Assembly (NCBI GenBank): GCA_963700375.1
Contig: CAVOXF010000003.1
Coordinates: 13,079 to 77,078 of the forward strand
Length of the DNA: 64,000 nucleotides
Origin: an uncultured Actinomycetota bacterium
GTDB taxonomy: Bacteria > Actinomycetota > Acidimicrobiia > Spongiisociales > UBA5794
Direction of reading: 5' to 3'
Part shown: one piece after another, positions 5,912 to 47,037 of the stretch
How positions within the stretch are numbered: the stretch's first letter is position 1
Layout of the letters: each line of letters begins with the position of its first letter
The notes under the pieces: model-generated
Databases searched by the model: none
The model's input: the letters and a program-made list of their open reading frames with translations, nothing else
Told to the model about the DNA's origin: nothing
Program-made: the position numbers and the translations under genes

Positions 5912-6026
5912 TGAGGCACTCCGGCACGCCGACAGCACGCGGGACACCCGCTTCGACCATCCACCGCGGACAGCGTCCTTCAACACGGCGATCGATACCC
6001 TCACGGCTTCCGCCAGAGGCCACCGG

Positions 6027-7028: not shown

Positions 7029-7160
7029 CGCTGCGAACCCAGGGTTCTCGGCTTTCTATTTGGCGCCGTGAGCCCACAGAATGGAGCCGGCCTACCGATC
7101 CCACGATTCCGCGGGCCGTCGGCGTCACATACGATGCGGAGAACCCTGGGTTCGCAGCGT
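7029..7160. repeat. structured intergenic repeat family 1, copy 1 (about 130 bp, 21-bp perfect terminal inverted repeats CGCTGCGAACCCAGGGTTCTC / GAGAACCCTGGGTTCGCAGCG, nested inner stem, variable loop)
   Basis: near-identical copies at 24397..24526 and, inverted, at 63488..63625; starts directly after the LacI-type gene stop and overlaps the last about 12 codons of the minus-strand oxidoreductase. Confidence 0.8.
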
Positions 7161-8153: not shown

Positions 8154-8191
8154 GATCTGATCCTATTCGATCTGCTCCGGCGGTCCGCCGT

Positions 8192-9463
8192 TCAGCTCGA
8201 ATCGGACGAACCGGCGCCTCCGCCATCGTCCCGGGCATCGGCCAGCAGGGGAGCGGCCGTCGACGATCGCGGCGGCAAGTTGACGAACTTCTGCTGCTCG
8301 GGGCGGACCCTCTGGACCATACGCACCACCGAGTAGGCGGCGATCGGCACGAAGAACGCCGAAAGGCTCCAGAGGAAGCCGTCGGGGCCGATGACCGCCA
8401 TCGCCACAGAGGTCACGAGCGGGCCGACAATCGATCCGACACCGTAGACGAACATGATTCCCCCCGCGGCGGCGACCAGCTTGTGCTCGGGGAGCAGATC
8501 GTTGATCTGAGATACGGCGAGCGAGTACATCGGGAACGCAAGACTCCCGTATGTAGCCATGACCACGAACAGCCAGGGGCTCCCGGGGTCGACGATCGTG
8601 CCGACCGCCGCAACGACGACCGCCCCCACCGCAACCGCCAGGATCACCCTCCGGCGCGGAAATCGATCCGAGAGATACCCGAGCGGAAACTGCGTCACCA
8701 GCGAGCCGACAAGCGACGCAGCCATGAAGACTCCGACCCGACCCGGAGCCATCCCGATCCTGGTGGCGTAGAAGGCTCCGAACGCGAAGATCGCACCACC
8801 GGAGGCGCCGGCGAGTCCGACCGCCACAACACCGAGCGGCGCAGTTCGCGTCAGCGAACCCACCGAGACGTGCACCGGCCCGATCCCGCGTGGAGCGGGG
8901 ATCTCCATCAGAGCGAGCGGCACTACCGCGAGTGAGATCAGAATGCCGGCGACGATGAACAGCGTCGTCTCCAGCGGATCGGCCGCGCCCAGCAGCAACT
9001 GCCCTAGCCCCAGTCCAAGTGTCACCACCACCATATAGATCGACAGGAGGCGGCCCCGCGTCTCGTTGGTCGCCCTTGCGTTGAGCCAACTCTCCACCGT
9101 GACGTACAGCCCCGACATGCACAGTCCTGCAATGAATCGGAGCACCCCCCATGAAATCGGGTTGACGAAGAGCGCGTAGGCAAGCGCGGTTGCCGCGGAG
9201 AGCGCCGCAAGACCGGCGAAGACCCTGATGTGACCGACGTTGGCAATCCATCGCGGGATCGTCAGCGAGCCGACGAGGAAGCCGCCGTAGTAGGAGGACA
9301 TGACAACGCCGGCGACGATGGTCGGGAATCCCTCGAGGTCGGCGCGAATACCGAGCAGCGAACCGACGAGTCCGTTGCCGACCATAAGTAGGGCAAGAGC
9401 GAGGAAGAGCGGGAGGACCGTTGCTGCGGCGCTGCGACCGCGCGGATTCGGAGTTGCAGTCAT
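8192..9463 (-). CDS. MFS transporter
   Basis: 12-TM-like hydrophobic profile; start ATG at 9463 (MTATPNPRG); the longer 9517 start is less likely. Confidence 0.8.
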   Translation of the reverse strand: MTATPNPRGRSAAATVLPLFLALALLMVGNGLVGSLLGIRADLEGFPTIVAGVVMSSYYGGFLVGSLTIPRWIANVGHIRVFAGLAALSAATALAYALFVNPISWGVLRFIAGLCMSGLYVTVESWLNARATNETRGRLLSIYMVVVTLGLGLGQLLLGAADPLETTLFIVAGILISLAVVPLALMEIPAPRGIGPVHVSVGSLTRTAPLGVVAVGLAGASGGAIFAFGAFYATRIGMAPGRVGVFMAASLVGSLVTQFPLGYLSDRFPRRRVILAVAVGAVVVAAVGTIVDPGSPWLFVVMATYGSLAFPMYSLAVSQINDLLPEHKLVAAAGGIMFVYGVGSIVGPLVTSVAMAVIGPDGFLWSLSAFFVPIAAYSVVRMVQRVRPEQQKFVNLPPRSSTAAPLLADARDDGGGAGSSDSS

Positions 9464-9552
9464 GGAATCGTCCGGCCTCACCTCAAGAGTTGCAGGCCGG
9501 AGGCTACCGGCCCACAACGTACCTCGGGCGAGTCAACCCGAAGGCAATCGGG

Positions 9553-12484: not shown

Positions 12485-12510
12485 GATCCGAGTCTACGAG
12501 AATCGCCGCA

Positions 12511-14586
12511 TCACGGGGACGGAACGATGGTGCACGCACATTCGATACGGGCGGGCGGCATCATCGTTCCGCTCGGCGGCCCGGCAGCGATCAACCATGG
12601 GCCCTTGCTCGCCGGGCAGTCGGCGCAAGGATGCCCTGCTGTCACGACAACGACTTCTGGTGCTCCGAGGTCGGCGAGCGCAGCCGTCACCCCTTCGTGA
12701 TAGGAGGCGCGCGATGCGAACCGAACCCGGCGCTCGGCATCGTCGGTCCGCCACGAGCGGAACACCCGGGACAGCGCCGCACCGGCCTCACGGTGTCCGG
12801 CACCGGTCTCACGGGAACGAGCGACCGAGGCCCGGGCGGCGTCGACGAGCGCTGCTGCGAACTCGATCGAGGGATCTCCCGGCGCTGCAGCGTCAGGCTG
12901 GGGCGTCTGGATCGCTCCGGTCATCTCGGCCGCCGCTGCGAACCCGGCCACCATGCTCTCCTGAGCCAGGACCTTCAGTGACTCGACGACCTCATCGCTC
13001 ACGATCGAGGCGTCGGGTTCCCATCCGTCGGTAAGACGGAGATCCTCGAGGGCACGGTTCTGGGCCTCGACGAGGTGCCGCTTGACCGTTCGGAGCGCCC
13101 GATTCTGGACGGGGAGAAGGAGCTTCTCCCGGAGGGCGACCGGGTCGAGAGCGTCGGCAGGTGGTGACGACGCTGCCGGATCGTGAGCGGGCTCGCGCTC
13201 CGCCCGTGTGAGCCCCGCTGCGTCGTCGTTCCGCTTCTCCGCGTCCCCCCGCTCTTCGATCGGGAGGACGGGTGCCGGCTCCGGCGCGAGCGAGAGACTC
13301 CCGCCATCATCGCTTGGCGGCGCTGCCGCCTCCGCCTGACGGGGAGGAATCGTCTTCTTGGACGACGGGGTGCGGAGCTGGGCGAAGAGACCGGCGAGGG
13401 CGTCCGGAGCAGGTTCGGGTTCCGGCTCGGGTTCCGGTTCCGGCTCGGGTTCCGGTTCCGGCTCGGGTTCCGGTTCCGGCTCGGGTTCCGGTTCCGGCTC
13501 GGGTTCCGGTTCCGGCTCGGGTTCCGGTTCCGGCTCCGGTTCCGGTTCCGGTTCCGGTTCCGGTTCCGGTTCCGGCTCCGGTTCGGGTTCCGGTTCCGGC
13601 TCGGGCTCCGGGAATGGGGAATGGGGAATGGGGACTGGCAGCTCGACGCTGGTTGGCGGCTCGGCCCTGAGCGTCGACTGTCGTAGCGCTTGGACCTCGG
13701 CGACCATGGCGTCGGCATCCACGGGTCCTGCAGCCAGCACGCGGTCGGCGGACACGATCCTCACGGAGCCTTCGTCATCGGGCCAATGGCTCGCGACCGA
13801 TCCGTCGAGAATGACCGCAGCATCGTCGCCCACCAGCACCGGCTCATCGGCCGGAGGAGCCGGTTCGGGCTCCGGTTCAACGCCTGCGATCGTGGCCCGT
13901 GCGGCTTCGAGTTCGGCCATCAACTCCGATCGGCGCACCTCGAGAGCGCGGGCACGTTCCTGAGCGGCGTCGGCCTGGCGCCGCGCCGCGGACACCAGCG
14001 CCTCGGCCTCCTGCCGGGCCGCTGCGACCCGACGTTCCGCCTCTTCTCGTCCGACGCGTATGGACTCGTCCCTCTCGCGACGTGCGTCTGCGGTGAGGTG
14101 CGACGCCTCGCGCTCGGCCTCGGCTTGGACGAACAGGGAACGCTCCGTCGTTGCGATCGCCAGCGCTTCACCTTCGGTCACTGCGGAAGCGAGCATCTCG
14201 GTGCCCGTCTCCCATGCGGATCGACGCACCTCGAACGCTGTCTGCCGGGTGGCGTCGCGCACCGCACGCGATTCCGCATCCGCTTCGGCGCGCCAGCGTG
14301 CGGCATCATCAGCGGCACGCGACCGCATCTGCTCCGCGGCGACCCGGGCTTCGGCGAGGATCCGTTTGACTTCCTCCCCAACGAGGTCGAGTTCGGTCGC
14401 CAGGTCCGTCGGGCGGTTCAGCCCAAGTTCGCTCAGCCCGGTCTCGAGTTCCGCAATGCGCTGTTCGAGCGCTGCGGCGCGTCGGGACACGGCGGCGAGA
14501 TGGGCATCAACCTGCTGCCGGTCATAGCCCTTGCGGGTTACCCGGAACGCGTCGGCGGGCGCGCCAGAATCGGTGGACTCGTCCAT
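12511..14586 (-). CDS. DivIVA domain-containing protein with a long internal (Glu-Pro)n repeat
   Basis: N-terminal [17 protein letters not shown] DivIVA motif, long coiled-coil region, about 33 consecutive EP dipeptides, conserved-looking C-terminal domain with a CxxC...CxC tail. Confidence 0.65.
13412..13612 (-). repeat. tandem repeat with 18-bp periodicity (ggttccggttccggctcg, about 11 units) encoding (EP)n inside the DivIVA-like gene
   Basis: directly visible periodicity; the wrong-frame track ORFs here read SGSGSG, PVPARV and FRFRLG runs. Confidence 0.9.
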
Positions 14587-14637
14587 GTGACCAGGGTAAC
14601 GAGGTGACTCGTTCGTCCCGGGTATTCGAACCGGTAC

Positions 14638-15729
14638 CTAGCTGTAGCCGAGGTAGTCGAGTGCGTCGTCGATGGTCTCGACCCGCACGACCTCGATGTC
14701 GTCTCCGGCCGCCACCAGGGCGTCCTCGTAGTTGGAAGCAGGCACCAGAACGACTGCCGCCCCGGCATCGATCGCTCCGTAGACCTTCTGCTGGACTCCA
14801 CCGATACCGCCGACGGTCCCGTCTCGCGCGATCGTCCCCGTACCGGCGATTCGTCGGCCATCGGTGAGGTCCTGCTCGGTCAACTGGTTGATGATCTCGA
14901 GCGTGAACATCATCCCGGCCGATGGGCCGCCGATGTTCTGGGTATCGGTGTCGATCTCGACTGGGAACTCGACGATGGGAGGGCTGTTGTCGAGCAACAC
15001 ACCGACCATCGGGCGGTCAGCATCGTCGGTGTGAGCGCCGAGGACAATGTCTACATCGATGACTTCGATGTCGTCGGAGCCCTCCACGACTCGCTGGACG
15101 GTGAGCGTCACTGCATCCCCGATCTCCTTCTCGGCAAGGGCATCGATGACATCGGAACGGAACGCAACCTCCGTGCCATCAATCGCGATGATGACGTCGT
15201 CGGTCACGAGCACGCCATCGGCTGCCGAATCGGGGACCGTCTCGATGACGAGCGCTCCGGTTCCCGTATACGTCGGTTCGTATCCGAGTTTCGTCAGTGC
15301 CACGAACGTCGCATCGGTCTTGGATTGCTCCATTCGCGCGAGGTTCTCTCGACGCAGATCCTCCGGGGAGACACCCGACGGCCGGATGTTCTGGCGAGGT
15401 GCAACCTCCACCTTCGGGTTGAGGATTCCCGCTGCGTACTCGAAGACATTGGCTTCGCGCAGGGCGACGGTGAGGAAGAACATCTCGCCGTCGACCTCGT
15501 ACTGCACCTCGTCGCCGGCAACGAAGACGAAGTCCGACGTGTCGTACAACGGCCCCGGAGACAGGGTGTAGTAGGGAACCTTGATCGGCCAGGCGACAGC
15601 GACGGCTATGCCGATCACCATCAGCAGCCCGGCGAGGACGAACGGCCACTTCGGCATAGGCGTGCGGGTCGCCGCTCCCGACTCGGGAGAGTCCAAGAAC
15701 TCGTCATCCACGGTGTTTGCCTGATTCAT
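14638..15729 (-). CDS. PDZ domain-containing S16 (Lon-like) protease, YlbL/Rv3194c-like
   Basis: N-terminal TM helix, PDZ domain, C-terminal Lon protease domain with GPSAG serine motif; adjacent to UPF0182 as in mycobacteria. Confidence 0.75.
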   Translation of the reverse strand: MNQANTVDDEFLDSPESGAATRTPMPKWPFVLAGLLMVIGIAVAVAWPIKVPYYTLSPGPLYDTSDFVFVAGDEVQYEVDGEMFFLTVALREANVFEYAAGILNPKVEVAPRQNIRPSGVSPEDLRRENLARMEQSKTDATFVALTKLGYEPTYTGTGALVIETVPDSAADGVLVTDDVIIAIDGTEVAFRSDVIDALAEKEIGDAVTLTVQRVVEGSDDIEVIDVDIVLGAHTDDADRPMVGVLLDNSPPIVEFPVEIDTDTQNIGGPSAGMMFTLEIINQLTEQDLTDGRRIAGTGTIARDGTVGGIGGVQQKVYGAIDAGAAVVLVPASNYEDALVAAGDDIEVVRVETIDDALDYLGYS

Positions 15730-15782
15730 TTGAGGCGAGGTTACCGACGATGGCGATTAGGCACAGCGGTTCCGTATGGCGT

Positions 15783-16370
15783 CTACGCGATGCGACGGCC
15801 CGCGACCAGGTCCGCCTGCACCACGATCCGCCGGTCGGCGGAGCCTCTCGGATGGCAGGCAAAGAGCGTGAGCATCGGCTTGCCGAAGTCGTACGAGATC
15901 CAGACGTCGTCCGGCGTGACGATGAAGGTGCTCGTAACCTTGTACATCACATCGAATCCCATGCCGTCTTCGAGGTAGATCAGGTCACCGATCTCGAGGC
16001 GATCCAGGGCCCAGAATGGCCGGGTGTGGGTGGTCCGATGACCTGCAAGGACGACATTGCCGTCGCCGCCCGGAGATGATGTCCCCGACCAATGGGCGAC
16101 ACCCTGGTCGATCACCGACAGCGAGATCCCAGAACGAACCGTCTCGTCGACGTCAATCGCGGGGATCTGGATCCTGGAGACCACCACTCCCGACTCCTGG
16201 GTCGGGGAGTACGTCGGCTGACGGCCCGGTGCCGGGACGGCGTCCGGCGGGACCGCATCCGGTAGCACGGTGTCTGCGCTCGCCGGTAGACCGCCGGACA
16301 CGAGAACCGCAAACCCGAGCGCGGTCATGAAACGGATCGCGGGTCTGGCAAGTCTCATCCCTGACAACAT
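15783..16370 (-). CDS. sortase family protein (class E/F type)
   Basis: signal/TM N-terminus; conserved His (LAGHRTT) and TLxTC active-site motif (LTLFACHP). Confidence 0.7.
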   Translation of the reverse strand: MLSGMRLARPAIRFMTALGFAVLVSGGLPASADTVLPDAVPPDAVPAPGRQPTYSPTQESGVVVSRIQIPAIDVDETVRSGISLSVIDQGVAHWSGTSSPGGDGNVVLAGHRTTHTRPFWALDRLEIGDLIYLEDGMGFDVMYKVTSTFIVTPDDVWISYDFGKPMLTLFACHPRGSADRRIVVQADLVAGRRIA

Positions 16371-16431
16371 CGGCTGAACCCACAGCTCACTTGAATCCAG
16401 GAAGATCCACGGCCACTACGAAAGGTCCAAC

Positions 16432-17022
16432 GTGCAGGCAGTCCACCCCAACGTCATCACCGCCATCACCCTCCCGCGCCGCGCAACAACCACGGTCGGT
16501 CTCATGGTCGGCTTCGCTCTGCTGACGGCTCTGGCCGCACAGGTCAGGATTCCGCTCCCCGGCACGCCGATCGCCATGACGGGCCAGACATTCGCGGTGC
16601 TGATCACCGGTGCGGCGCTGGGCTCCCGGGTCGCCGCCGGAAGCATGATGGTCTACGTCGCTCTCGGTGCGATCGGCCTCCCGTTCTTCGCCGGTGGTCA
16701 GGGTGGCTGGACCTACGCGACCGGCGCTTCCTTCGGATACCTCGCCGGCTTCATCGCCGCCGCATGGCTGGTCGGGCGCTTCGCAGAGCAACGCAAGGAT
16801 CGGTCGATTGGTACCGCCGTGCCCGCGTTCCTCGCCGGGAGCGCCGCCGTCTACACGCTCGGCGTCACGTGGCTGTGGGCGACGGTCGACTCGGTCCCAA
16901 CCCTGTCAGCCGCACTCAGCGCCGGTCTCTATCCGTTCGTAGCTGGCGACCTCATCAAGGCCATCCTCGCCGGCCTGGCTCTCCCCGCCGCCTGGTTCGT
17001 GGTGGATAGGGCCCGGAGATAG
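16432..17022 (+). CDS. bioY: biotin transporter BioY
   Basis: about 190-aa polytopic membrane protein with BioY-like TM pattern. Confidence 0.75.
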   Translation: MQAVHPNVITAITLPRRATTTVGLMVGFALLTALAAQVRIPLPGTPIAMTGQTFAVLITGAALGSRVAAGSMMVYVALGAIGLPFFAGGQGGWTYATGASFGYLAGFIAAAWLVGRFAEQRKDRSIGTAVPAFLAGSAAVYTLGVTWLWATVDSVPTLSAALSAGLYPFVAGDLIKAILAGLALPAAWFVVDRARR

Positions 17023-17093
17023 TCAGGAGCCCCCGGCGCCGTCGCTGCGCTCCTCGCCAATCCCCCGCCTTGCAGCCGGGCGACCGGCGACTC

Positions 17094-17930
17094 CTAGCCT
17101 TCCATCTCTTCGCCCAGGTAGGCCTTGATCACGTTGGGATCGCGCTGGATTTCGGATGGGATGCCGGTGGCGATGCGTTCCCCGAAGTCGATCACCATCA
17201 CGCGATCCGCGATGTCCATGACCAACCCCATATCGTGTTCGACGAGGATCATGGCGATAGACAGTTCCTCCCGGATGTCGAGGATGAAGCGGGCCATGTC
17301 TTCGGTCTCTTCAAGGTTCATGCCGGCGACGGGTTCGTCGAGAAGCAGCAGCTCCGGCTCCATGGCGAGCGCTCGTCCCAACTCCACGCGCTTCTGTACG
17401 CCGTAGGGCAACATCGCCACCGGGTACTTCCGCCATCGGGCGATCTCGAGGAAGTCGATAATCTCCTCCGCGACGGTGCGGTTCTCGAGTTCTTCCTTCT
17501 TCGCCGGTCCGATCCAGATGGCGCCGTCCCACCAGGATGTCTTCGTTCGGGTGTGGCGACCGAGCATGATGTTGTCGAGCACCGTCATGTGGGGGAATAA
17601 CTCGATGTTCTGGAAGGTCCGAGCGATGCCGAGCGTCGCTATCCGATCGGGACGTCGCCCGACGATGTCCTCGCCCTTCCACCGGATGGATCCCACCTGC
17701 GGTTTGTAGACCCCGTTGATGCAGTTGAACGTCGAGGTCTTCCCGGCGCCGTTCGGACCGATCACGGCGAACAACTCGCCGTCGTCGACGGTGAAGCTCA
17801 CGTCGTCGAGCGCCTTGATCCCCTTGAAGGACAGGCTCACATCCTCGAACTCGAGCAGGTGCGCATAGGCTGCGCCGTCGGTGTCCCGTCCGGCGCGGAG
17901 GGACGTGCGTCGTGATGTCATGACAGCCAC
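17094..17930 (-). CDS. livG: branched-chain amino acid ABC transporter ATP-binding protein LivG-like
   Basis: Walker A GPNGAGKT, LSGG-like (YGVQKRVELGRAL) signature, Walker B LLLDEP, LivG-type insert. Confidence 0.85.
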   Translation of the reverse strand: MAVMTSRRTSLRAGRDTDGAAYAHLLEFEDVSLSFKGIKALDDVSFTVDDGELFAVIGPNGAGKTSTFNCINGVYKPQVGSIRWKGEDIVGRRPDRIATLGIARTFQNIELFPHMTVLDNIMLGRHTRTKTSWWDGAIWIGPAKKEELENRTVAEEIIDFLEIARWRKYPVAMLPYGVQKRVELGRALAMEPELLLLDEPVAGMNLEETEDMARFILDIREELSIAMILVEHDMGLVMDIADRVMVIDFGERIATGIPSEIQRDPNVIKAYLGEEMEG

Positions 17931-18709
17931 CGCTTCCGGCGCTTGTAGTGCTTGATGTCGCGGAAGGACTTGCGGTCCCCCTCTGCGTGGAGCCCGAGAT
18001 AGAACTCCTGCACGTCGGCATCGCCGAGGAGCTTGTCCGGCTCCCCGTCCATCACGACCTTCCCGGTCTCCATGATGTAGCCGTAGTCGGCGATCGACAG
18101 CGCCATGTTGGCGTTCTGCTCGATGAGCAGCACCGATGTTCCCTGCCGGTTGATGTCGACGATGATGTCACGAATCTGCTGAACGAGCATGGGAGCGAGT
18201 CCGAGCGTCGGCTCGTCGAGGATGAGCAACTCAGGGTCCGCCATCAACGCCCTGCCGATCGCGAGCATCTGCTGTTCGCCGCCAGACAGGTACCCGGCAG
18301 TGTCCTTCTGGCGGCCCTGAAGGACAGGGAACAGACCCATGACGCGGTCGCGTGCGGCGTTCACCGATCCCCGGTCGGTATTGGTGAACGCGCCGGTCCG
18401 CAGGTTGTCGTCGACGCTCATTTCGGCAAAGATCCTGCGGCCCTCGAGCACCTGGGCGATTCCCATGCGAACGATCGCCGATGGATCCTTTCCATCGATC
18501 CGCTCGTCCTTGAAGGTGACGGAGCCTTTGGTGATCTCACCGTTGTGGACGGTGAGGATGCCGGTGATGGCTCGAAGCGCCGTCGTCTTGCCCGCTCCGT
18601 TCGCTCCGAGGAGCGCAACGATCTGCCCGTCGCTCACCGTGAGCGACAGACCACGCAGCACGAGGACGACGTCGTTGTAGACGACTTCCAGGTTTGCGAC
18701 TTCGAGCAT
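17918..18709 (-). CDS. livF: branched-chain amino acid ABC transporter ATP-binding protein LivF-like
   Basis: Walker A GANGAGKT, signature LSGGEQQML, Walker B LILDEP; start ATG at 18709 (MLEVANLEV); upstream part of the track ORF is antisense junk. Confidence 0.85.
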   Translation of the reverse strand: MLEVANLEVVYNDVVLVLRGLSLTVSDGQIVALLGANGAGKTTALRAITGILTVHNGEITKGSVTFKDERIDGKDPSAIVRMGIAQVLEGRRIFAEMSVDDNLRTGAFTNTDRGSVNAARDRVMGLFPVLQGRQKDTAGYLSGGEQQMLAIGRALMADPELLILDEPTLGLAPMLVQQIRDIIVDINRQGTSVLLIEQNANMALSIADYGYIMETGKVVMDGEPDKLLGDADVQEFYLGLHAEGDRKSFRDIKHYKRRKRWLS

Positions 18710-18771
18710 CGAACCCTCTTCGTGTCTGCCGGGTGGTCGGACCCGCAGGCCCGACCACCCGGTTGTTCGGT

Positions 18772-20172
18772 CTAGAACTGGTAGCAGGCCTCGGTGAACT
18801 CGAAGGACTCGGCAGTCGGACCAACGAAGTCCGTCTGGATGATTTCCGAACCAGAGCCACCCGCCTCGAGATTCGCCACCGACGGACGCCACAGTGTGAT
18901 CGCCCGCTGGACCTGGTCCGACGTGCCGCCTGTGTAGTTCTCGGCGGGAGCCATGCCCTGGAACTCCACGTTGTCGAGTGACCGGATGGCGGCGAGCACT
19001 CCTGCCCGAGTCATGTCGCCGTTTTCGTAGGCCTTCTGGAGTGCCGCATGAACGAGCATTGCCTCCACGACACCGAGTCCGACGTAGTCGTTGGCCGGCA
19101 TGTCGGCTCCGGACGCCTCGACAAGCTGCATCGTCAGCGCCATGCCGGCGGAATCTCCACCCCACGGCTGCATGTAGAAGCCGCCGTACCAATCACGCTG
19201 GATTGCATCGGCGATCGGCGACACCAGGAACGCCGGGTTGTACGTAGGTCCGGCCCCGGACCACTTCGCTTCGAAGCCCTGGGCCAAGGCCCCGCCATAG
19301 ACCTCTGAGAACGTGCTCGGCGTCGTCGTGACGTAGACGAGGTCGGCGCCCGAGGCCACGATGGCATCGGCGACCGGCTTCAGGTCCTGGCCGGGCACGA
19401 TCGTCCCTGAACCGTCGTAGACCACCTCGATGCCGTTGGCTTCGGCCCACATGAGAGCACCGGCCATCGGGTCGAGCCCGAAGTCGCCGGGGATCGAGGC
19501 GAGGGCGAGCGTCGGAGCCTCGTTGCCTTCCTTCTTCTCCTCGTCGAGCATCCAGTCGAGGAGGCTCATCGCCTCCAAGCAGTACGGGGCGCCGGTGTGG
19601 AGCACCGTCGGTGCGATGTTCGTGTCGGTCCAGCCCGAGTACCAGGTCGCCGGGACGGCGATCATGCTGTCCTCTTCGAGAGCGTCGGCGATCGCCAGCG
19701 TCTGCGGTGACCCGGTGGTGTGGCTGATTGCCACGACCTGGTCGCGGAGTTCGTCGTAGGCGGCGATGTGCTGCTCGACCTCGTATGCCGTGTCGCGGGT
19801 CTCCATCATGACCTGGAGGCCACCGATGCCACCGTTGTTGTTGACCCACGCCCAGTACATCTTCTGGCCGGCGATGATCGGATTGACGAGCGGAGCGAAC
19901 GCTCCGGTCAGATCCGCCGTCTGTCCAACGGTGATCGTTCCTGCTTCGAGATCAACGCCATAGTCGGTCGCGATCTCCATCGGTTCCGTCGGCGGCGCCT
20001 CCGTGGTGGTTGTCGTCTCCTCACCACCGCTTGGAGCGGCCGTGGTCGTCGTCGTCTCGTCACCGCCGCTCGGAGCGGCCGTCGTGGTCGTGTCTTCACT
20101 GTCGCTGCTACAGGCCGCCGCGAAGAGCGCCAACACCAGCAACAGAACGAAGATTCTTGCCTTTCTCATCAT
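18772..20172 (-). CDS. ABC transporter substrate-binding lipoprotein (Liv/branched-chain amino acid type)
   Basis: signal peptide plus lipobox (LFAAAC), duplicated Thr-rich linker (APSGGDETTTTTAAPSGGEETTTTT), periplasmic binding domain. Confidence 0.75.
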   Translation of the reverse strand: MMRKARIFVLLLVLALFAAACSSDSEDTTTTAAPSGGDETTTTTAAPSGGEETTTTTEAPPTEPMEIATDYGVDLEAGTITVGQTADLTGAFAPLVNPIIAGQKMYWAWVNNNGGIGGLQVMMETRDTAYEVEQHIAAYDELRDQVVAISHTTGSPQTLAIADALEEDSMIAVPATWYSGWTDTNIAPTVLHTGAPYCLEAMSLLDWMLDEEKKEGNEAPTLALASIPGDFGLDPMAGALMWAEANGIEVVYDGSGTIVPGQDLKPVADAIVASGADLVYVTTTPSTFSEVYGGALAQGFEAKWSGAGPTYNPAFLVSPIADAIQRDWYGGFYMQPWGGDSAGMALTMQLVEASGADMPANDYVGLGVVEAMLVHAALQKAYENGDMTRAGVLAAIRSLDNVEFQGMAPAENYTGGTSDQVQRAITLWRPSVANLEAGGSGSEIIQTDFVGPTAESFEFTEACYQF

Positions 20173-20223
20173 TTCCTCCTCAGACCCGATCTCATGCCCT
20201 GGCCAGGGGCGATCGAGCGATTG

Positions 20224-21462
20224 CTAGTAGGTGAATGGCCACGACTTCCAGTAGTTGCGGATCCGGATCCAGATCCCGTACAGGCCGAGCGGTTCGAAGA
20301 TCAGGAATCCGATGAGGAGCAGTCCATAGAGCAGAAGATTGAACTGCCCGACATTGAGGCCGGGCGACGTGCCCGGGAGCGTGGAGACGATGCCGAAATC
20401 ACCGTTGCTCGTTGAGACGAAGACGCCGGCGATCGAAGCGGGTAGACCGCTCCCCGTCTCAGCGGTCGACGCAAGCAGGCCGGTGAAGTCCTGAACGAGA
20501 CGCGGAAGGACGACCACGAACGCCGCGCCGAGGAGGGTCCCGGTGACGGTTCCGATGCCGCCGATGAGCAGGATGGCCACGAACTCGACAGACATGATCA
20601 GGGAGAAGCCCTCGGGTACGAGGCGCCCGACGAACGCACCGAGGACAGCCCCGGCCACGCCGGCGAATGCAGACGAGAGGGCGAAGGCCATCAGTTTGTA
20701 GCGTGCGTCGGCGACGCCCATCACCTCGGCGGCGATGTCCCGGTCCCGGATCGACATGAACGCCCGGCCCACGCGGGTTCGCTGAATGTTCTTCGCGACG
20801 ATCACCGCGAGCACCACGAGCACCAGCAGCAGCAGGTAGGTCTTCGCCTCGCCCGTCATCTCAACGCCGAACCATGGTCCGTCTGCGGTGGGGTCGAGCA
20901 GGGGGACCTCTTCCTTCCACAGCCGGATCTCGAAGCCCGGGAACTTGCGCCCGGCCTGCGCGCCACCGGTGACTGACGGAAGGCTGCGGAAGATCCATTC
21001 GCCGATGAAGACAAGTCCAAGCGTGACGATGGCGAGATAGATGCCGCGGACCCGAACCGCCGTGGGGGCGATGAGCGCCCCGACTGCGGCGGCGACCGCC
21101 CCGGCGGCCGGTAGCCAGATCCATATCGGGAGGCCGAGGCCCCAGTGCGAAGCGCCCGTCTCTCCCCCGAGGATCGCCGCCGTGTAGGCGCCGATGGCCA
21201 CGAAGAAGGCGTGCCCAAGCGAGACCTGGCCGGCGAGGCCGGAGAGGATGTGGAGCCCGAGTGCTCCGATGGCGAAGATGGCAACGCGGCTGAGAATCTT
21301 CATCCAGTCGTTGTCCGAGAGGAAGCCCAATCCCGGGATGAGACCGAACGGGACGAGGGCGAGCACGGCGAGGAAGATCAGGGCAGTGGTCTTCTGCGTC
21401 CACGTCGGCAGCAACGCCATCTCCGACGAGTAGGTCACGTAGAGGCGGGGTCGATCCCTCAT
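20224..21462 (-). CDS. livM: branched-chain amino acid ABC transporter permease LivM-like
   Basis: polytopic permease; start ATG at 21462 overlapping the upstream permease stop (ATGA). Confidence 0.8.
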   Translation of the reverse strand: MRDRPRLYVTYSSEMALLPTWTQKTTALIFLAVLALVPFGLIPGLGFLSDNDWMKILSRVAIFAIGALGLHILSGLAGQVSLGHAFFVAIGAYTAAILGGETGASHWGLGLPIWIWLPAAGAVAAAVGALIAPTAVRVRGIYLAIVTLGLVFIGEWIFRSLPSVTGGAQAGRKFPGFEIRLWKEEVPLLDPTADGPWFGVEMTGEAKTYLLLLVLVVLAVIVAKNIQRTRVGRAFMSIRDRDIAAEVMGVADARYKLMAFALSSAFAGVAGAVLGAFVGRLVPEGFSLIMSVEFVAILLIGGIGTVTGTLLGAAFVVVLPRLVQDFTGLLASTAETGSGLPASIAGVFVSTSNGDFGIVSTLPGTSPGLNVGQFNLLLYGLLLIGFLIFEPLGLYGIWIRIRNYWKSWPFTY

Positions 21463-22445
21463 ACGCGCCGAATCTCCTCGGTGCCGAACAGTCCGTACGG
21501 ACGGACGAGCAGCACGATGAGCATCACGATGTACGGCATCACTCCGGAGAAGCCGAGTCCGAGGAACGACCAACTCGGCCCGGTGAGGTACGCCCCCGCA
21601 TATGACTCGGCCAGGCCGACGATGAACCCGCCGAGGACCGCCCCGGTGATCGAGTCGAGGCCGCCGATGACGATCGCCGGTAGAGCACGGAACGCGAAGA
21701 ACGCGGTCGTGTTGCCGACCCCGACGGACGACCTGGGGAAGAGGGACGAGAAGATCCCGGCGATCGCGGCGAGACCGGCGCCGATCGCCCATGCCATGGC
21801 GAAGATGCGGCCGGCGCTGATGCCCTGAGCCATCGCCGCCTCCTGATCGAAGGCCGTGGCGCGCATCGCGATCCCGTATCGAGACCGGAAGAACAGAGCG
21901 ATCCCGACGAGGCAGATGATGGTGACGATCACGGTCGCAACCTCGGACTTGGCGATGATCGCCGGGCCCACGTTGATGACGTCCGCACCCCACGGGTCGC
22001 CAAGCGGTCTCGGGTTGGCACCAATGAGGTCGTCGGTGATCGTGCGGATCACGATGTCGAGCGCGATCGTGATCATCACCACCGAGAACAGCGGTTCACC
22101 GATCATCGGACGGATCGCCAGGCGCTCGAGCACGAGGCCCACAACGGCGGTGAGCAGGACCGCGACGAGCGCCGACAGGATCCACTGGATGGTGGTTGGG
22201 GCAAAGGTGACATACCGCCCCGGGAAGTTGATCACGGTTGCGAGGTAGGCGGCGAAGAACGCTCCGAGCGCGGCAATGGCGCCGTGGGCGAAGTTCAGGA
22301 CCTGGGTCGCCTTGTAGATGAGCACCAGGCCGAGCGCGAGCAGCGCGTAGATGGCTCCGAGTGCGATGCCGCTGCTGGTGACGTTGGCGAGTTTCTCGGC
22401 CGCGTCCTGGCCCCCTGCCTGTGCGAAGGTGACAACGACGAGCAT
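21459..22445 (-). CDS. livH: branched-chain amino acid ABC transporter permease LivH-like
   Basis: polytopic permease; start ATG at 22445 (MLVVVTFAQ), one nt overlap with the fadD-like stop. Confidence 0.8.
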   Translation of the reverse strand: MLVVVTFAQAGGQDAAEKLANVTSSGIALGAIYALLALGLVLIYKATQVLNFAHGAIAALGAFFAAYLATVINFPGRYVTFAPTTIQWILSALVAVLLTAVVGLVLERLAIRPMIGEPLFSVVMITIALDIVIRTITDDLIGANPRPLGDPWGADVINVGPAIIAKSEVATVIVTIICLVGIALFFRSRYGIAMRATAFDQEAAMAQGISAGRIFAMAWAIGAGLAAIAGIFSSLFPRSSVGVGNTTAFFAFRALPAIVIGGLDSITGAVLGGFIVGLAESYAGAYLTGPSWSFLGLGFSGVMPYIVMLIVLLVRPYGLFGTEEIRRV

Positions 22446-24361
22446 CACGACTCGTACATCCCGTTGACGAGATCGGAGAACGTGCTTTCCATCGCCCGAC
22501 GCTTGATCTTCTGCGTGGCCGTCAATTCGCCGTCTTCGTGGTCCAACTCTTTCGGGATGAGTCGGAACACCTTGATCTGCTCGACCGTCGCGAATTTCTC
22601 GTTCGTCTCGTTGACGACGCCCTGAATCAGTTCGATCACCTCGGGCTTCTCGGAGAGGTCCCGGTAGGTGGTGTAGGGGATGCTCTTGGAGAGCGCCCAG
22701 CCGCCGACCACGTCGTACTCGATCGCGATGAGCGCGGTGAGGTACTTGCGGCCGTCGCCGATGACCATCGCTTCCTTGACGAACGGCGAGGTCTTGAGGC
22801 TGTTCTCGATCTCCGAGGGTGAGATGTTCTTCCCGCCCGACGTGATGATGATGTGCTTGATCCGGTCGATGATCTTGATATGGGTTCCGTTGACCCACAC
22901 CCCGACGTCGCCGGTCATCAGCCATCCGTCCTCGGTGAACGTCTCAGCAGTCTCCCGGGGCTTGTTCCAGTAGCCGAGGAAGTTGCCGGGGTGCTTGGTC
23001 TGGATCTCGCCGGTCTTGTCGTCGAGGCGGAGGCCGATGCCGGGGTACGGCTCCCCGACGGTTCCCAGGATGGCGCGCCCGCCGAAGTTGAGCGTGGCGA
23101 CGGCGCTGTTCTCGGTCATCCCGTACAACTCGTACAAGGGGACGCCGAATCCCATGAAGAACTCGATGACCTCCGGCGCGATTGGTGCGGCGCTCGTCCC
23201 TGCCCATCGACACCGGCGCAGGCCGACCCGCTCCTTGAGGGCGCGGAACATGATGACGTTGCCGACCCAGTACGCCAGGCGGGTCGGGAGGGTGTAGTCG
23301 CCGCCGTGTTTGGCACGGCTCCGCCCGACGTACGCCGCGATCTTGAACCCAAGGGCGTTGACGAGGCGCTTCACGAACGAGGCGTCATTCGACTTGATGA
23401 GGATCGTGGCGTGGATCTTCTCCCAGATGCGGGGCACAGCGAAGAACAACGTCGGTTGGACCTCCTGGAGATTGATCTGGACGGTCTCGATCGACTCGGC
23501 GAAGTCGAGAATCGCCCCCGAGGAGCACATCGTCCACGTCGACATGATGCGTTCCGCAACGTGGCCGAGCGGGAGGTAGGTGAGAATCAGGTCGCTCGGG
23601 CCAGGAATCTTGCCGTCAGGGGCACGATCCGGGGCGAGGATCAGATTGTCGATGGCGAACGCGGCGTTCGCGTTGGTCAGCATCGCTCCCTTCGGCGGAC
23701 CGGTGGTTCCCGAGGTGTAGACGAGGGTCATGATGTCGTCGGATTCGGCTTCCGCCATCGCGGCGGCGACGCTGTTGGGATGCTGTTCGCGGTGGGCCCG
23801 GCCGAGTTCGAGGAAGTCGTCCCAGAAGAGCAGGCGTTCGTCGTCGTAGGAGCGCAGACCGCGGGGTTCCAGGTAGATGATCTTCGTGACGTTCGGGAAC
23901 GCCTCACGCCCGGGTTCGACGATCTTGTCGACCTGCTCCTGATCCTCAGCAAGGTGGACGCGGGCTCCGCAGTCGTTGACCAGATACTGCACCTCGGCAG
24001 TCGGGTTGGTCGGGTACAGGCCGGTCGACATAGCGCGGATCGCGATGGCGGCAAGGTCGAAGATCACCCATTCCGGCCGGTCTTCGGAGTGGATGGACAC
24101 AACGTCGCCATGGCGAACGCCGAGTGCGAGCAGGCCGTGAGACACGAGAACGATCTCTTCCCAGAGTTCGGCCCAGGTCCGCTGCTGCCAGATCCCGAGG
24201 CGCTTCTCGCGCATCGCGACCCCATCCGGAGAGGAAAGAGACCGCTCACGGACCATGAGAGCAACAGTGCGACATGCGTCGGATAGGTCGGGTCTCCCCG
24301 CCTGTTCGAGCGTGGTCGTCACGGCCCCATCGCCTCCAGTCCTCCGGCCCCAACGCCACAA
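22445..24361 (-). CDS. long-chain fatty-acid--CoA ligase (AMP-dependent synthetase, FadD family)
   Basis: AMP-binding motif YTSGTTGPPKGAM, TGD motif, C-terminal ...GKNISPSEIE; start uncertain (24361 ATG or internal). Confidence 0.8.
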   Translation of the reverse strand: MWRWGRRTGGDGAVTTTLEQAGRPDLSDACRTVALMVRERSLSSPDGVAMREKRLGIWQQRTWAELWEEIVLVSHGLLALGVRHGDVVSIHSEDRPEWVIFDLAAIAIRAMSTGLYPTNPTAEVQYLVNDCGARVHLAEDQEQVDKIVEPGREAFPNVTKIIYLEPRGLRSYDDERLLFWDDFLELGRAHREQHPNSVAAAMAEAESDDIMTLVYTSGTTGPPKGAMLTNANAAFAIDNLILAPDRAPDGKIPGPSDLILTYLPLGHVAERIMSTWTMCSSGAILDFAESIETVQINLQEVQPTLFFAVPRIWEKIHATILIKSNDASFVKRLVNALGFKIAAYVGRSRAKHGGDYTLPTRLAYWVGNVIMFRALKERVGLRRCRWAGTSAAPIAPEVIEFFMGFGVPLYELYGMTENSAVATLNFGGRAILGTVGEPYPGIGLRLDDKTGEIQTKHPGNFLGYWNKPRETAETFTEDGWLMTGDVGVWVNGTHIKIIDRIKHIIITSGGKNISPSEIENSLKTSPFVKEAMVIGDGRKYLTALIAIEYDVVGGWALSKSIPYTTYRDLSEKPEVIELIQGVVNETNEKFATVEQIKVFRLIPKELDHEDGELTATQKIKRRAMESTFSDLVNGMYES

Positions 24362-24396
24362 TAGAGGCTTGACCTGCCGCCTGCTGGAAACCCCAC

Positions 24397-24526
24397 GCTG
24401 CGAACCCAGGGTTCTCCGCTTTCTATTTGGCGCCGACAGCCCACAGAATGAACCGGGCCGCTGTGGCCTTCCATTCCGCGGGCTGTCGGCGTCACATACG
24501 ATGTGGAGAACCCTGGGTTCGCAGCG
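24397..24526. repeat. structured intergenic repeat family 1, copy 2
   Basis: same 21-bp terminal inverted repeats and inner stem as 7029..7160; abuts the stop codon of the HEAT-repeat gene and lies about 35 bp upstream of the fadD-like ORF start. Confidence 0.8.
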
Positions 24527-24934
24527 CTAGCCGGGCTGGCGTCCGACGACCATCTCCGCCGCCTCGCGGACCGACGGATTCCGATCTCGCGCCGCCGCCC
24601 GGATCGCCGGCTCAACGGCCGGATCGTCGAAGACGGTCAGAGCCACCACCGCCCGCCGCCGAACCTGGGGAGGGGCTTTGGCGACCAGTTCGAGCAGCGC
24701 AGAGAGGGCCGCGTCATCCCCGATTGCGCCCAGCGCGGCAACGGCCGCCTCGCGACCGGAGCGGTCGCCGTCGCCGGTCGCCACGTCGATGAGCCAAGGG
24801 ACCGCCGACTCGGCGCGGAGTTCGCCGTAGGCGGTGGCAATCGATTCGACCACGCGGGGATCATCGTCGGACCGGGCCAGGTCCAAGTCCGGAATCACCG
24901 CTCTACCCGCTCCCCCAAGCGCTTCGGCGGCCAT
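24527..24934 (-). CDS. HEAT repeat domain-containing protein (N-terminus unresolved)
   Basis: repeated ...AVEAL..IGD..A...L... HEAT-like units; only ATG at 24934; frame remains open with coding-like GC3 up to ~25147, see findings. Confidence 0.5.
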   Translation of the reverse strand: MAAEALGGAGRAVIPDLDLARSDDDPRVVESIATAYGELRAESAVPWLIDVATGDGDRSGREAAVAALGAIGDDAALSALLELVAKAPPQVRRRAVVALTVFDDPAVEPAIRAAARDRNPSVREAAEMVVGRQPG

Positions 24935-25124
24935 CGCACGCGCCGCGCCGTCGTGATCCGTGGCGAGGCGTCGGCTGATCGCTGCGATCGATTCGTCAGT
25001 CAGGCCCGAAGCGATGCAGACGGAGATGGCGAGGCGGCGCAGGGCGGCATCGCCGTGATCGAGGAACGGGATCGGGTCATCGAGGAGGCGAACCAGCGCC
25101 TCGCGATCGGCGGACGTTGCGGTA

Positions 25125-25580
25125 TCAGTAGTGATGAAGATCCTCCCTCACCCACTCGGCTCCGCCCGGCCAGTGCTCCTTCTTCCAGATCGGAGCCCGC
25201 GCCTTGATCTCGTCGATCAAGTAGCGCCCTGCGGGAAACGCGTCACTCCGGTGAGGCGTTGACACCGCAACGGCCACCGAGATCTCGCCGACCCGCAACT
25301 CCCCGACCCGGTGGATCGCTGCGACCTTGCTGACCGGCCAGCGCTCGCGGACCTCGGCGACGACTTCGGCGATCTTGTCGATGACCTGCTCGTCGTACGA
25401 CTCGTATTCGAGATGGGTCACCCCCGTCCGGCCCGGCGAGTGGTCCCTCACCGTTCCCACGAACAGCACGACCGCTCCCGCATCGGGGGAGGAAACGGCC
25501 GCTACAACGTCGCCCGGATCCACCGGATCGGCGGACACAGCGATCAGATCGGACTGCTGGGATAGGTGGTCTGAGGGCAT
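25125..25580 (-). CDS. moaE: molybdopterin synthase catalytic subunit MoaE
   Basis: 151-aa product with conserved IHRVGELRVGE...YLIDEIKARAPIWKKE motifs; ATG at 25580; the upstream part of the 322-aa track ORF is junk. Confidence 0.8.
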   Translation of the reverse strand: MPSDHLSQQSDLIAVSADPVDPGDVVAAVSSPDAGAVVLFVGTVRDHSPGRTGVTHLEYESYDEQVIDKIAEVVAEVRERWPVSKVAAIHRVGELRVGEISVAVAVSTPHRSDAFPAGRYLIDEIKARAPIWKKEHWPGGAEWVREDLHHY

Positions 25581-25592
25581 ACAATCGGCTCC

Positions 25593-26918
25593 GTGGACGA
25601 CACTACCAATGGAAACACACCATCGGTGCCTGAGCCTGACCCCTCGGATGAGCTCTATCCGCCATACGTGGCATACGTGAGGCCCTGGAGTTCGGAGAAC
25701 GGGCCGACGACACGGCGGTCGCCGGCGCCACCACCGGCCCCTGAGCCGAAGCCGCGCAGCCACATCTCGACCGGCGTGATCGCCTTCCTTGCGGCCGTGG
25801 TCGGCGCCATCGTCGGCATCGCACTGCTCGCGGCGCTTGGCGTCTTCTCGGATGATCCCGTCGAGGTTGCGACACCGCCGACCACCGCGCCCGCCACCAC
25901 CGTCGTTCGCGACGTCACAACCGAGATCGTCACCATCCCGACCGACCCCGGCGCTCCCGAGGCTGTTGCCGTCAAGGTCGTGCCCTCCGTGGTCACCGTC
26001 CAAGTGGGCGATCTCGAAGCGGACACGCTCACCCTGAGGGGATCGGGGTCCGGCGTGATCCTGGAGAACGGCTACATCGCCACGAACCACCATGTCATTG
26101 ACAACGCATCATTCGCCCGGATCGTCTTGCAGGATGGCCGCACGTACGACACCGAGATCATCGGATCCGATGCGTATACCGACCTCGCCGTGCTCAAGGT
26201 TGACATCGACGGACTCAGACCGATCGAGTTCGGATCCACCGACGATCTCGCCATCGGCCAGATGGCGATTGCCGTCGGCAATCCTCTGGGCCAAGACGGA
26301 GGGGCGTCACTCACCGTCGGTGTGATCTCCGCGTTGTCGCGGACCGTCGACTTCGAGGATGGCACCGGCCTCTACGGCATGCTCCAGACCGACGCGCCGA
26401 TCACCTCCGGCTCGAGCGGCGGCGCGCTTGTCGACGAGATGGGGAGGCTCATTGGGATCACCTCGGCGATCGGCGTCAGCCAGGCCGGCGCCGAAGGCAT
26501 CGGATACGCGATACCCGTCGAACTCGTTGAGCGGATCACCAGTGAGATCATCGAGACCGGAACTGCGAAGCATCCGTTCATCGGCATTTACGGGAACGAC
26601 TACGTCGTGACCGCCGACGACGGAGCGCTGACTCCGAGCGGGGCAGAGATCGCCGAAATCATTGAGGGCGCCTCGCCGGCCGGCGACTCGGGCTTCCTGC
26701 CCGGGGATGCAATCGTCGAGGTCGAGGGCGCCGAGATTAAGACCATGGAGGACCTGATCATCGCACTGCGCCTCTTCCACGTCGGCGAAGAAGTCCAGGT
26801 GACGGTGACCCGCGACGACGTGCCGATCACTGCCACCGTGCTCTTGATCGAGCGCCCGGATGATACGCCGCCCCTGACCAGCGAAGCGGGAGTCGAAGAG
26901 GTCCCCGGTGACGAGTGA
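25593..26918 (+). CDS. htrA: HtrA/DegP-like trypsin-like serine protease with PDZ domain
   Basis: cytoplasmic tail, TM helix, catalytic H (ATNHHV), D, S (GSSGGAL) triad, C-terminal PDZ. Confidence 0.8.
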   Translation: MDDTTNGNTPSVPEPDPSDELYPPYVAYVRPWSSENGPTTRRSPAPPPAPEPKPRSHISTGVIAFLAAVVGAIVGIALLAALGVFSDDPVEVATPPTTAPATTVVRDVTTEIVTIPTDPGAPEAVAVKVVPSVVTVQVGDLEADTLTLRGSGSGVILENGYIATNHHVIDNASFARIVLQDGRTYDTEIIGSDAYTDLAVLKVDIDGLRPIEFGSTDDLAIGQMAIAVGNPLGQDGGASLTVGVISALSRTVDFEDGTGLYGMLQTDAPITSGSSGGALVDEMGRLIGITSAIGVSQAGAEGIGYAIPVELVERITSEIIETGTAKHPFIGIYGNDYVVTADDGALTPSGAEIAEIIEGASPAGDSGFLPGDAIVEVEGAEIKTMEDLIIALRLFHVGEEVQVTVTRDDVPITATVLLIERPDDTPPLTSEAGVEEVPGDE

Positions 26919-28059: not shown

Positions 28060-28195
28060 AGTCGCCAGGTCCCCTGAGGCCAACGGACGGGGGACGCGAA
28101 GGAGCGACAGCGACGACGCAGGTGGGCTTCGGGAGCCCGAGGCTGAAGATGAGGCCGGAAATGGCTCGCGGTTCGCAGCCGGCAGCCGTTCGTTC
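28060..28195. repeat. structured intergenic repeat family 2, copy A
   Basis: shares a roughly 70-nt core (GGGGGACGCG.AGGAGC.ACAGCGACGACGCAGG.GG.CTTC.GGGAGCCCGAGGC...GAAGATGAGGCC) with 42350..42475 and partly with 60100..60205. Confidence 0.6.
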
Positions 28196-32863: not shown

Positions 32864-32914
32864 CAGGCATTCCACGCGGTTCGACCCCGGTCACCGCATG
32901 AATCTACGATGAAT

Positions 32915-32946
32915 GGCTCCCGGTCGGTCTCAGCCGACCGGGAGCC
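32915..32946 (+). terminator. intercistronic hairpin between pstS and pstC (13-bp stem GGCTCCCGGTCGG / CCGACCGGGAGCC)
   Basis: perfect inverted repeat with 6-nt loop; likely partial terminator giving pstS excess over pstCAB. Confidence 0.55.
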
Positions 32947-32991
32947 ATCGCACGGAGCCGGAAGACACTCGACGCCGAAATCGAAGGCGAC

Positions 32992-42290: not shown

Positions 42291-42349
42291 CCTGGCTCCT
42301 TATGTGGGCGACACCATCGGATTCTACCGGACCCCATCCCGCCAGGTGG

Positions 42350-47013: not shown

Positions 47014-47037
47014 CTTGGCTATTCGTCGTTGTCGGGA

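Follow-up and report, generated by a model that had tools for sequence, protein, structure and literature searches.

Genomic context of the palindromic repeat

The 64-kb window analysed here (positions 13,079 to 77,078 of contig CAVOXF010000003.1, from an uncultured Actinomycetota bacterium) contains exactly three copies of a 131-nt palindromic repeat, as determined with an 81-member covariance model run with filters off (Table 1). Copy 1 lies between a LacI-family regulator gene on the plus strand and the next plus-strand open reading frame (ORF), while copy 2, the element originally flagged, lies between a HEAT-repeat gene and an AMP-binding/acyl-CoA ligase and ABC-transporter operon, all on the minus strand. 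The acyl-CoA ligase gene starts approximately 70 nt beyond copy 2, and in relatives it heads a branched-chain ABC transporter operon. Copy 3 is flanked by guaA and a CheA-like hybrid histidine kinase gene, again both on the minus strand. The neighbouring genes were identified by Pfam scans and homologue search, and each of the three copies separates co-directional, functionally unrelated genes. The first-pass annotation of the window had recognised the same three copies with coordinates that differ by 1–7 nt, and had placed all of them at gene 3′ ends; the LacI-type and HEAT stop codons indeed touch the elements exactly, but the distance to guaA is 46 nt and not 40 nt.

The 21-nt arm GAGAACCCTGGGTTCGCAGCG occurs six times in the window at ≤2 mismatches, versus none expected from 100 shuffled sequences. 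The outer arms, described earlier as perfect, are not all so, as the left arm of copy 3 carries two mismatches (CGCCACG...). Each arm includes the 13-nt palindrome GAACCCAGGGTTC, and the central loop, of 21 nt, is variable; the palindrome and the variability agree with the first description, while the inner stem said to be conserved is present but contains conserved mismatches.

Table 1. Location of the repeat copies, the parts of copy 2, and adjacent or comparable features in the window
Feature	Position (nt)	Strand	Remarks
Copy 1	7029–7159		Same orientation as copy 2; covariance model 126.1 bits
Copy 2 (flagged copy)	24396–24526		Covariance model 140.7 bits
Copy 3	63488–63618		Inverted relative to copies 1 and 2; covariance model 113.5 bits
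Copy 2, left outer arm CGCTGCGAACCCAGGGTTCTC	24396–24416	+	Core palindrome GAACCCAGGGTTC at 24402–24414
Copy 2, inner stem 5′ half GGCGCCGACAGCCCACAGAATG	24429–24450	+	Includes the GCCC(R)C(R)G block found throughout the family (invariant columns 44–51)
Copy 2, apical loop	24451–24471	+	Variable, 21 nt
Copy 2, inner stem 3′ half CATTCCGCGGGCTGTCGGCGTC	24472–24493	+	
Copy 2, right outer arm GAGAACCCTGGGTTCGCAGCG	24506–24526	+	Core palindrome at 24508–24520
LacI-family gene stop codon (TAA)	7026–7028	+	Abuts copy 1
HEAT-repeat gene stop codon (TAG)	24527–24529	-	Directly abuts the hairpin base of copy 2
guaA stop codon	63665–63667	-	46 nt from copy 3
CheA-like hybrid histidine kinase gene	Start at 63416	-	Other neighbour of copy 3
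Unique GC-rich gene-end hairpins	18729–18762, 32913–32948, 46867–46898, 46983–47014, 47903–47933		

The repeats form long hairpins supported by covariation

The element consists of two inverted half-units around a loop of about 20 nt, each half-unit having the 13-nt palindrome GAACCCAGGGTTC at its start and a conserved GCCC(R)C(R)G block at its end. Each window copy forms one long hairpin (~50 bp) on either strand, with 55-nt arms pairing around a loop of 17–23 nt, and the predicted folding energies range from -84 to -102 kcal/mol for RNA (z-scores of -9 to -16) and from -47 to -57 kcal/mol for DNA. Covariation was measured on a family alignment of 81 sequences, in which 88.6% of the cells contained standard pairs, versus 33–42% when the pairing partner was slid along the alignment. 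Changes on both sides were found in 21 of the 50 pairs, the observed covariation score was not reached in any of 500 shuffled alignments, and RNAalifold gave a concordant result. The outermost positions also co-vary (CGCTGCG/CGCAGCG, CGACACG/CGTGTCG, CGCCACG/CGTGGCG and CGCCCCG/CGGGGCG), and the columns that are invariant without ascertainment are A30, T31, G34, G37, CCC45–47, G51 and GGGC85–88. A compensatory change within the core itself was detected in the diverged copy L232 from a more distant relative, where the core has become GTACCCAGGGTTC in one of the arms and ...AACCCTGGGTAC in its partner, thus retaining arm-to-arm pairing with the local palindrome broken. The long hairpin is maintained and its stems are backed by covariation, as had been proposed for the nested stems from the window copies.

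The stems are also constrained in vertical descent. In 24 orthologous pairs the mean divergence was ~12% for the flanks and ~24% for a third-codon proxy, with the non-core stems diverged by 13.6% and the loop by 29%; when compared with the third-codon proxy, the loop drifts at approximately the neutral rate and the stems at about half of that. Among vertically inherited substitutions, double changes occurred 13 times where 4.4 were expected, three times the number predicted from independence.

Distribution of the repeat family

A two-arm pattern scan using one genome per species detected 37 exact-core copies in six metagenome-assembled genomes (MAGs) of Acidimicrobiia/Actinomycetota, of which 16 were in CAWAUO01, 13 in JANTHO01, four in JAOZRW01, two in CAWEEG01, and one each in JAUVNV01 and CAWIHT01. 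The closest relative of the window among these is CAWAUO01 at ~85% nucleotide identity, and the window belongs to none of the six. A relaxed scan of metagenomic contigs gave at least 120 matching contigs; among the matches listed, about 45 are further unique family copies, with the rest being either sister families or unrelated arrays. The sister families differ in their middles, but still have GAACCCAGGGTTC on the outside and GCCC(R)CGG...CCG(Y)GGGC on the inside. After removal of duplicates the collected set comprised at least 84 unique copies in 37 independent site groups (168 ends), with two main size classes of 131 nt and 120–121 nt. A one-arm scan of viral contigs gave 73 single chance matches and no two-arm element, searches of Rfam at gathering thresholds and with permissive E-values returned only generic microRNA-hairpin noise, and a full-text literature search for the motif gave chance primer matches only.

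The copy number is therefore far higher than the three seen at first, and the suggestion of a dispersed, structured repeat similar to repetitive extragenic palindromic (REP) sequences is borne out by the many copies, the several species and the stem covariation. That it was not a described element also held, with no match in Rfam or the literature. The repeats constitute a lineage-specific family of 120–131-bp palindromic intergenic elements in a small clade of uncultured Acidimicrobiia, and this family is real, well-supported and previously undescribed, although of an already known kind.

The core, as (CTGC)GAACCCAGGGTTC, was also observed in other architectures on metagenomic contigs (L189:3729–3850, L202, L158:985–1110 and L194:1770–1920). 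Among these architectures are tandem arrays with a 36-nt unit, ~61-nt direct repeats, and a scrambled copy in which the right arm is present three times; in L202 the core motif recurs every 36 nt at 1116–1260.

The hairpin base abuts stop codons, with a preference for TAA

The elements are located at the 3′ ends of genes, and very often the hairpin base directly adjoins a stop codon. Of the 168 element ends, 51 have a stop triplet immediately next to the outer arm, as do 21 of the 37 independent sites, and these touching stop codons are preferentially TAA (26 TAA, 16 TAG and 8 TGA). The other genes in the same loci (n=686) use TGA 411 times (60%), TAG 255 times (37%) and TAA 20 times (3%), and TAA is thus 17 times more frequent at touching stops than in the genomic background, an excess that stands out because TAA represents only 3% of the stops in these genomes. 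The base preceding a touching stop is C in 44/51 cases (34% in the background), the base just outside the arm is A at 110/168 ends, and flanks without a stop codon have C-rich tails ending in CA or AA. JANTHO-type copies have a palindrome extended by 2 nt (CC...GG), and here the TAA lies just beyond the extension, which indicates that the stop tracks the base of the hairpin. With the upstream stop codon directly at its edge, the element would be transcribed as the 3′ end of the upstream gene.

This coupling can be read in two ways, which are not mutually exclusive. The tail of the element may itself provide the stop codon, or readily mutate into one, and REPs with a GTAG tag have been reported to supply a TAG stop to the neighbouring ORF (PMC3733652). 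Alternatively, spacers may erode down to the hairpin base, after which TAA would be favoured over the leaky TGA because termination occurs against a strong hairpin. The orthologous guaA sites, where TAA is found only in the case with a 2-nt spacer, fit the second reading, as does copy L232, which has a TGA plus a run of eight C residues.

Orthologous sites persist while copies are homogenised within genomes

Orthologous intergenic sites are occupied across genomes with flanks that are 72–90% identical, and all three window sites are occupied in another species. The orthologue of the copy at 7029 is L011, those of the copy at 63488 are L137 and L036, and those of the copy at 24396 are L018 and L013, with the stop codon touching the element at the same position in all three members of the last set. 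At the guaA site the orthologues align precisely at the downstream boundary, while the spacer between stop codon and element is 46, 15 or 2 nt. In close orthologues the orientation and central sequence are retained, except that the element is flipped or replaced in 2/21 pairs. When distant genomes are compared, the similarity of orthologous copies (0.72) does not exceed that of non-orthologous copies (0.71), versus 0.84–0.86 for paralogues within a genome.

Copying or gene conversion is ongoing, as seen from near-identical, half, nested and replaced or flipped copies. Copies L003 and L016 are 100% identical at unrelated sites within JAOZRW01, L009 and L036 are 98% identical at unrelated sites within JANTHO01, and L173 is 97.7% identical to the window copy at 24396, again at an unrelated site; these near-identical copies match in their loops too. 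Half copies were found at L012:7896–7954 and L026:2520–2586, and nested or rearranged copies in L023 and L194. These patterns are most simply explained if occupied sites persist by vertical descent and copies are now and then replaced or converted by the variant that currently dominates in the respective genome.

The spread of the repeats has left no recognisable target-site duplications (TSDs), in agreement with the original observation on the window. Using strict boundaries, no TSD was found at 82/84 collected copies, and the lengths of direct repeats equalled those of a control with re-paired flanks. No transposase gene was seen near full or half copies in the collected loci, again as noted at the outset, and these loci contained neither long-range arm pairs enclosing a gene nor a parent insertion sequence (IS) sharing the ends of the element. 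When the ORFs of these loci were clustered all-against-all, no neighbour family recurred beyond orthologues. A search for empty sites at the HEAT-ligase locus gave no clean empty site among syntenic relatives, of which L232 carries the diverged copy described above; more distant relatives had lost synteny.

In another of the syntenic relatives, with a ligase of 84% identity (L231:2806–3000), the HEAT-ligase spacer contains, instead of the element, 190 nt of unrelated sequence with small hairpins of its own. This spacer is either a decayed or replaced copy, or belongs to a lineage that never had one.

Terminators and promoters in the region

The scan of window positions 6000–25900 found four canonical terminators versus 7.8 expected by chance, and called no hairpin-plus-T-run terminator at copies 1 or 2. 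The genome of the window appears to end genes with hairpins that have no U-tract. Unique GC-rich hairpins with perfect or near-perfect stems of 13–15 bp and without T runs are present at or near other gene ends (Table 1).

Of the functions considered for the elements themselves, the canonical intrinsic terminator was rejected as it fails on the U-tract, and an outward promoter was rejected as the only TANNNT-like hexamer (TACGAT) occurs in a minority of copies and no σ70-like site was found at the elements. The earlier proposal of a bidirectional terminator stands in part: it fits the placement between transcription units and the paucity of canonical terminators, but not the lack of a T/U run after the hairpin.

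Comparison with known repeat systems

REPINs, or REP doublets, likewise consist of two inverted short palindromic units with a spacer that together form one long hairpin, and are extragenic, present in tens of copies per genome, devoid of TSDs and organised in genome-specific variant populations (PMC3116915, PMC3733652). They are also found downstream of ORFs, and an adjacent ORF can take its stop codon from their termini; REPs are situated between ORFs that are unidirectional or convergent (PMC3733652). The repeats described here show the same layout, with GAACCCAGGGTTC in both arms, ~50 bp of pairing and a 21-nt loop, and comparable copy numbers (at least 16 in CAWAUO01, 13 in JANTHO01 and three per 64-kb window) with TSDs at chance level. 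They differ from REPINs in having no consistent tag, as the flanks read CTAA, CTAG, CTGA or C-rich ...CCA/ACA/CAA whereas REPs have GTAG or CGTC at the 5′ end. Further differences are the unit palindrome of only 6+1+6 nt, the length of 120–131 nt, which exceeds that of most REPINs, and the host, which belongs to the Acidimicrobiia and not the Proteobacteria; moreover, a weak search found no RAYT gene in 1.15 Mb of flanking DNA.

The TRIT (‘Tuberculosis Rho-independent terminator’) elements, reported only in Mycobacterium, comprise 147 palindromic, sequence-conserved and bidirectional copies at narrowly defined positions relative to the stop codon, starting ~8 nt inside the coding sequence (PMC3152330). 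Similarities with our repeats are the actinobacterial host, the many sequence-conserved palindromic hairpins, the narrow placement relative to the stop, the genomes poor in canonical terminators, and a conservation that suggests a (putative) binding factor. In our repeats, which were compared with TRIT by description, the stop codon touches the hairpin base. Later work has given TRIT support from RNA-seq.

The ERIC/IRU sequences of Enterobacteria are imperfect palindromes of ~127 bp located in transcribed intergenic regions and conserved at orthologous sites across species; no transposase or TSD is known for ERIC, nor are these sequences known for touching stop codons. They thus share with our repeats the size, the intergenic palindrome, the conservation of orthologous sites and the lack of a detected transposase or TSD, but sequence and host phylum are unrelated. 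The Correia elements (CREE/NEMIS) of Neisseria and other MITEs (miniature inverted-repeat transposable elements) of the IS630 type are 100–155 bp in length with terminal inverted repeats of ~26 bp. They are co-transcribed with their neighbours and affect termination or processing, and Correia elements duplicate a TA target and contain an IHF site; they resemble our repeats in length and terminal inverted repeats, and differ in the TSD, which was not seen here. We regard TRIT as the closest functional precedent and REPINs and ERIC, which have the same arrangement of two inverted palindromes, as the closest structural precedents. We describe the family as similar to REPINs, ERIC and TRIT but as a member of none of them; the lack of a GTAG tag speaks against a REPIN, that of TSDs against a classical MITE, and that of a U-tract against a canonical intrinsic terminator.

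Two further similarities were dismissed. The LexA ‘Cheo box’, GAAC-N4-GTTC, does not match the N5 spacing found here, and integron attC sites are excluded as the arms, by inspection, do not fit RYYYAAC ... GTTRRRY, and the neighbours are syntenic core genes (guaA, LacI-family) and not cassettes.

Possible functions and origin of the repeats

We think it probable that these are REPIN/ERIC-like palindromic repeats without TSDs, which are kept at the ends of transcription units as terminators lacking a U-tract or as protectors of the mRNA 3′ end. The elements would have spread by a route that leaves no TSD, either single-strand transposition of the HUH/RAYT type or gene conversion between copies, and the surviving copies would be those located at transcription-unit ends, where they may serve as, or at least substitute for, U-tract-less terminators or 3′-end protectors. 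When transcribed, the ~50-bp hairpin may terminate transcription without a U-tract and/or block 3′ exonucleases, thus insulating the downstream promoter; a role of this sort has been proposed for the mycobacterial TRIT hairpins and for REPs. Most simply, the conserved core palindrome at the hairpin base would be the putative binding or cleavage site of a trans-acting protein.

Several observations weigh against this interpretation. The hairpin is followed by G-rich 3′ flanks and not by a T/U run, and the argument for a role in termination or mRNA stabilisation is solely positional. The sense strand folds better in only 21/41 cases (20 for the antisense strand), and G-U mismatches (172) do not significantly exceed A-C mismatches (140; p=0.08); with no strand asymmetry in either folding or mismatches, there is no positive sign of selection at the RNA level rather than on a DNA palindrome. 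Single-sided disruptions of the stem are tolerated, making up 46 of 79 changes, and the invariance of the core is in part a product of the two collection scans, for which the core was a requirement. Gene directions called from base composition around the 84 copies proved unreliable (the HEAT side of 24396 was miscalled) and the resulting counts of convergent, tandem and divergent neighbours were not used, so that the statement that the elements never occur in divergent promoter regions is limited to the three window copies and the stop-codon statistics. With respect to mobility, a RAYT/IS200 tblastn search of 1.15 Mb of flanking DNA gave nothing below E=0.4, although this was a weak search, and Pfam searches of the genes next to half copies identified an ABC transporter, FtsX and EamA but no transposases.

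As a more tentative extension, GAACCCAGGGTTC may be the recognition site of a putative trans-acting protein, with elements and protein forming a co-evolving cis/trans system that marks transcription-unit ends. The palindrome is common to this family, to three or more sister hairpin families whose middles are unrelated, and to tandem arrays in high-GC metagenomic contigs, and this sharing of the core with other repeat architectures points to a partner protein. Such a protein could be either a new REP-mobilising enzyme working without a GTAG tag, or a termination or processing factor that reads the hairpin base. If this proves true, the elements would bring their own efficient TAA stop codon into genomes where TAA otherwise represents 3% of stops, and if the partner protein exists, the system could help with the long-open question of whether REP-like repeats are selfish, domesticated or both.

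The positional data would also suit an immobile, TRIT-like host terminator or insulator that depends on a factor, with a protein binding the GAACCCAGGGTTC duplex at the hairpin base, and with the similarity between copies due to gene conversion and to selection for a match with that factor rather than to transposition. The conservation of the core across sub-families with differing middles, the narrow range of positions relative to stop codons, the persistence of sites across species with a consensus specific for each genome, and the number of canonical terminators not exceeding chance in 20 kb of the window all agree with it, and a double-stranded-RNA-binding factor has been proposed by the authors of the TRIT study (PMC3152330). 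We nevertheless consider it unlikely, as the copies that are identical including the loop at unrelated sites, together with the half, nested and rearranged copies, require a copying process. The same core is present in 36-nt tandem arrays and other architectures that are not terminator-like, there is no sense-strand bias, and the factor is only putative.

Copying could conversely be explained by a classical MITE, i.e. an internally deleted derivative of an IS with a DDE transposase that is moved by cut-and-paste via the 21-nt terminal inverted repeats and has no host function, with gene ends being where insertions are tolerated in a compact genome. We judge this option, which the first-pass annotation had raised, to be improbable, as it is weakened by TSDs being no commoner than chance and by the lack of a transposase with matching ends in the loci. 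The terminal inverted repeats, the length of 120–131 bp, the multiple copies with genome-specific variants, the identical copies at unrelated sites and the nested and partial copies would all be expected from a MITE, but the elements have ragged ends, with many copies showing a palindrome lengthened by A...T or CC...GG, neither full nor half copies had a transposase nearby in the loci, and no gene there is enclosed by long-range arm pairs. In addition, the entire element and not just its ends is a maintained hairpin with covariation, and sites persist at 72–75% flank identity in a compact genome with their stems constrained.

It is even less probable that selection acts on a DNA-level site, in which a pair of identical 13-bp palindromes with a spacing of 96 or 106 bp would provide operator-like sites for a dimeric DNA-binding protein (a regulator, nucleoid protein or recombinase), or the element would act as a cruciform. 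The 50-bp stem shows covariation over its full length, something that two operators would not need, the neighbouring genes have no common function, and copy L232 has retained arm-to-arm pairing in spite of a broken sub-palindrome. These findings outweigh the 6-bp half-sites typical of dimeric helix-turn-helix proteins, the weak hairpin formed by a lone arm (-2.7 kcal/mol), the strand-symmetric behaviour, and the two size classes that differ by approximately one helical turn. Finally, a family of genes expressing stable, structured small regulatory RNAs, suggested earlier on, is hardly credible: the predicted structure is very stable, but Rfam has no corresponding family, a conserved promoter is lacking both within and next to the element, the elements occur in both orientations relative to neighbouring and upstream genes with no sense-strand preference in energy or mismatches, and the upstream gene has its stop codon directly at the element.

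The repeats are a well-documented new family and not a new principle, and their TAA coupling, the combination of persistence and homogenisation, and the shared core merit follow-up. The Acidimicrobiia are abundant and almost wholly uncultured, and nothing is known of their transcription-unit ends or small mobile DNA; the covariance model R1 offers a searchable gene-end marker for the Acidimicrobiia clade. The family is the second actinobacterial case, after the mycobacterial TRIT, of a sequence-conserved, U-tract-less hairpin that is precisely placed relative to the stop codon, and a clear case of a repeat that persists at orthologous sites with its sequence homogenised within each genome.

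Other repeats in the window

A palindromic intergenic element of ~126 nt is located at 53444–53569 between two minus-strand genes; it is unrelated in sequence to the 131-nt family but has the same layout, with the sub-palindrome CCCCTCAGGGG in each outer arm and a predicted RNA fold of -88 kcal/mol (z-score of -7). Partial look-alikes of this element are present at 13316–13349 and 40768–40801, which suggests that the genome of the window hosts several REPIN-like hairpin families. A second three-copy repeat of ~100 nt, also unrelated to the 131-nt family, was detected at 28066–28165 (plus strand), 42349–42445 (plus strand) and 48935–49035 (minus strand). It consists of a C6/G6 hairpin (GTCCCCCCGG...CCGGGGGAC) followed by the conserved, non-palindromic GCGGAGGAGCGCCAGCGACGACGCAGG...TGAAGATGAGGCC, has no match in Rfam, and has the appearance of a directional RNA motif or a leader and not of a palindromic element. 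Within coding sequences, an array with a 12/18-nt periodicity is located at 13367–13642 in a long minus-strand ORF (12511–14586), and three 93-nt repeats are present at 62477–62796 inside the CheA-like kinase gene.

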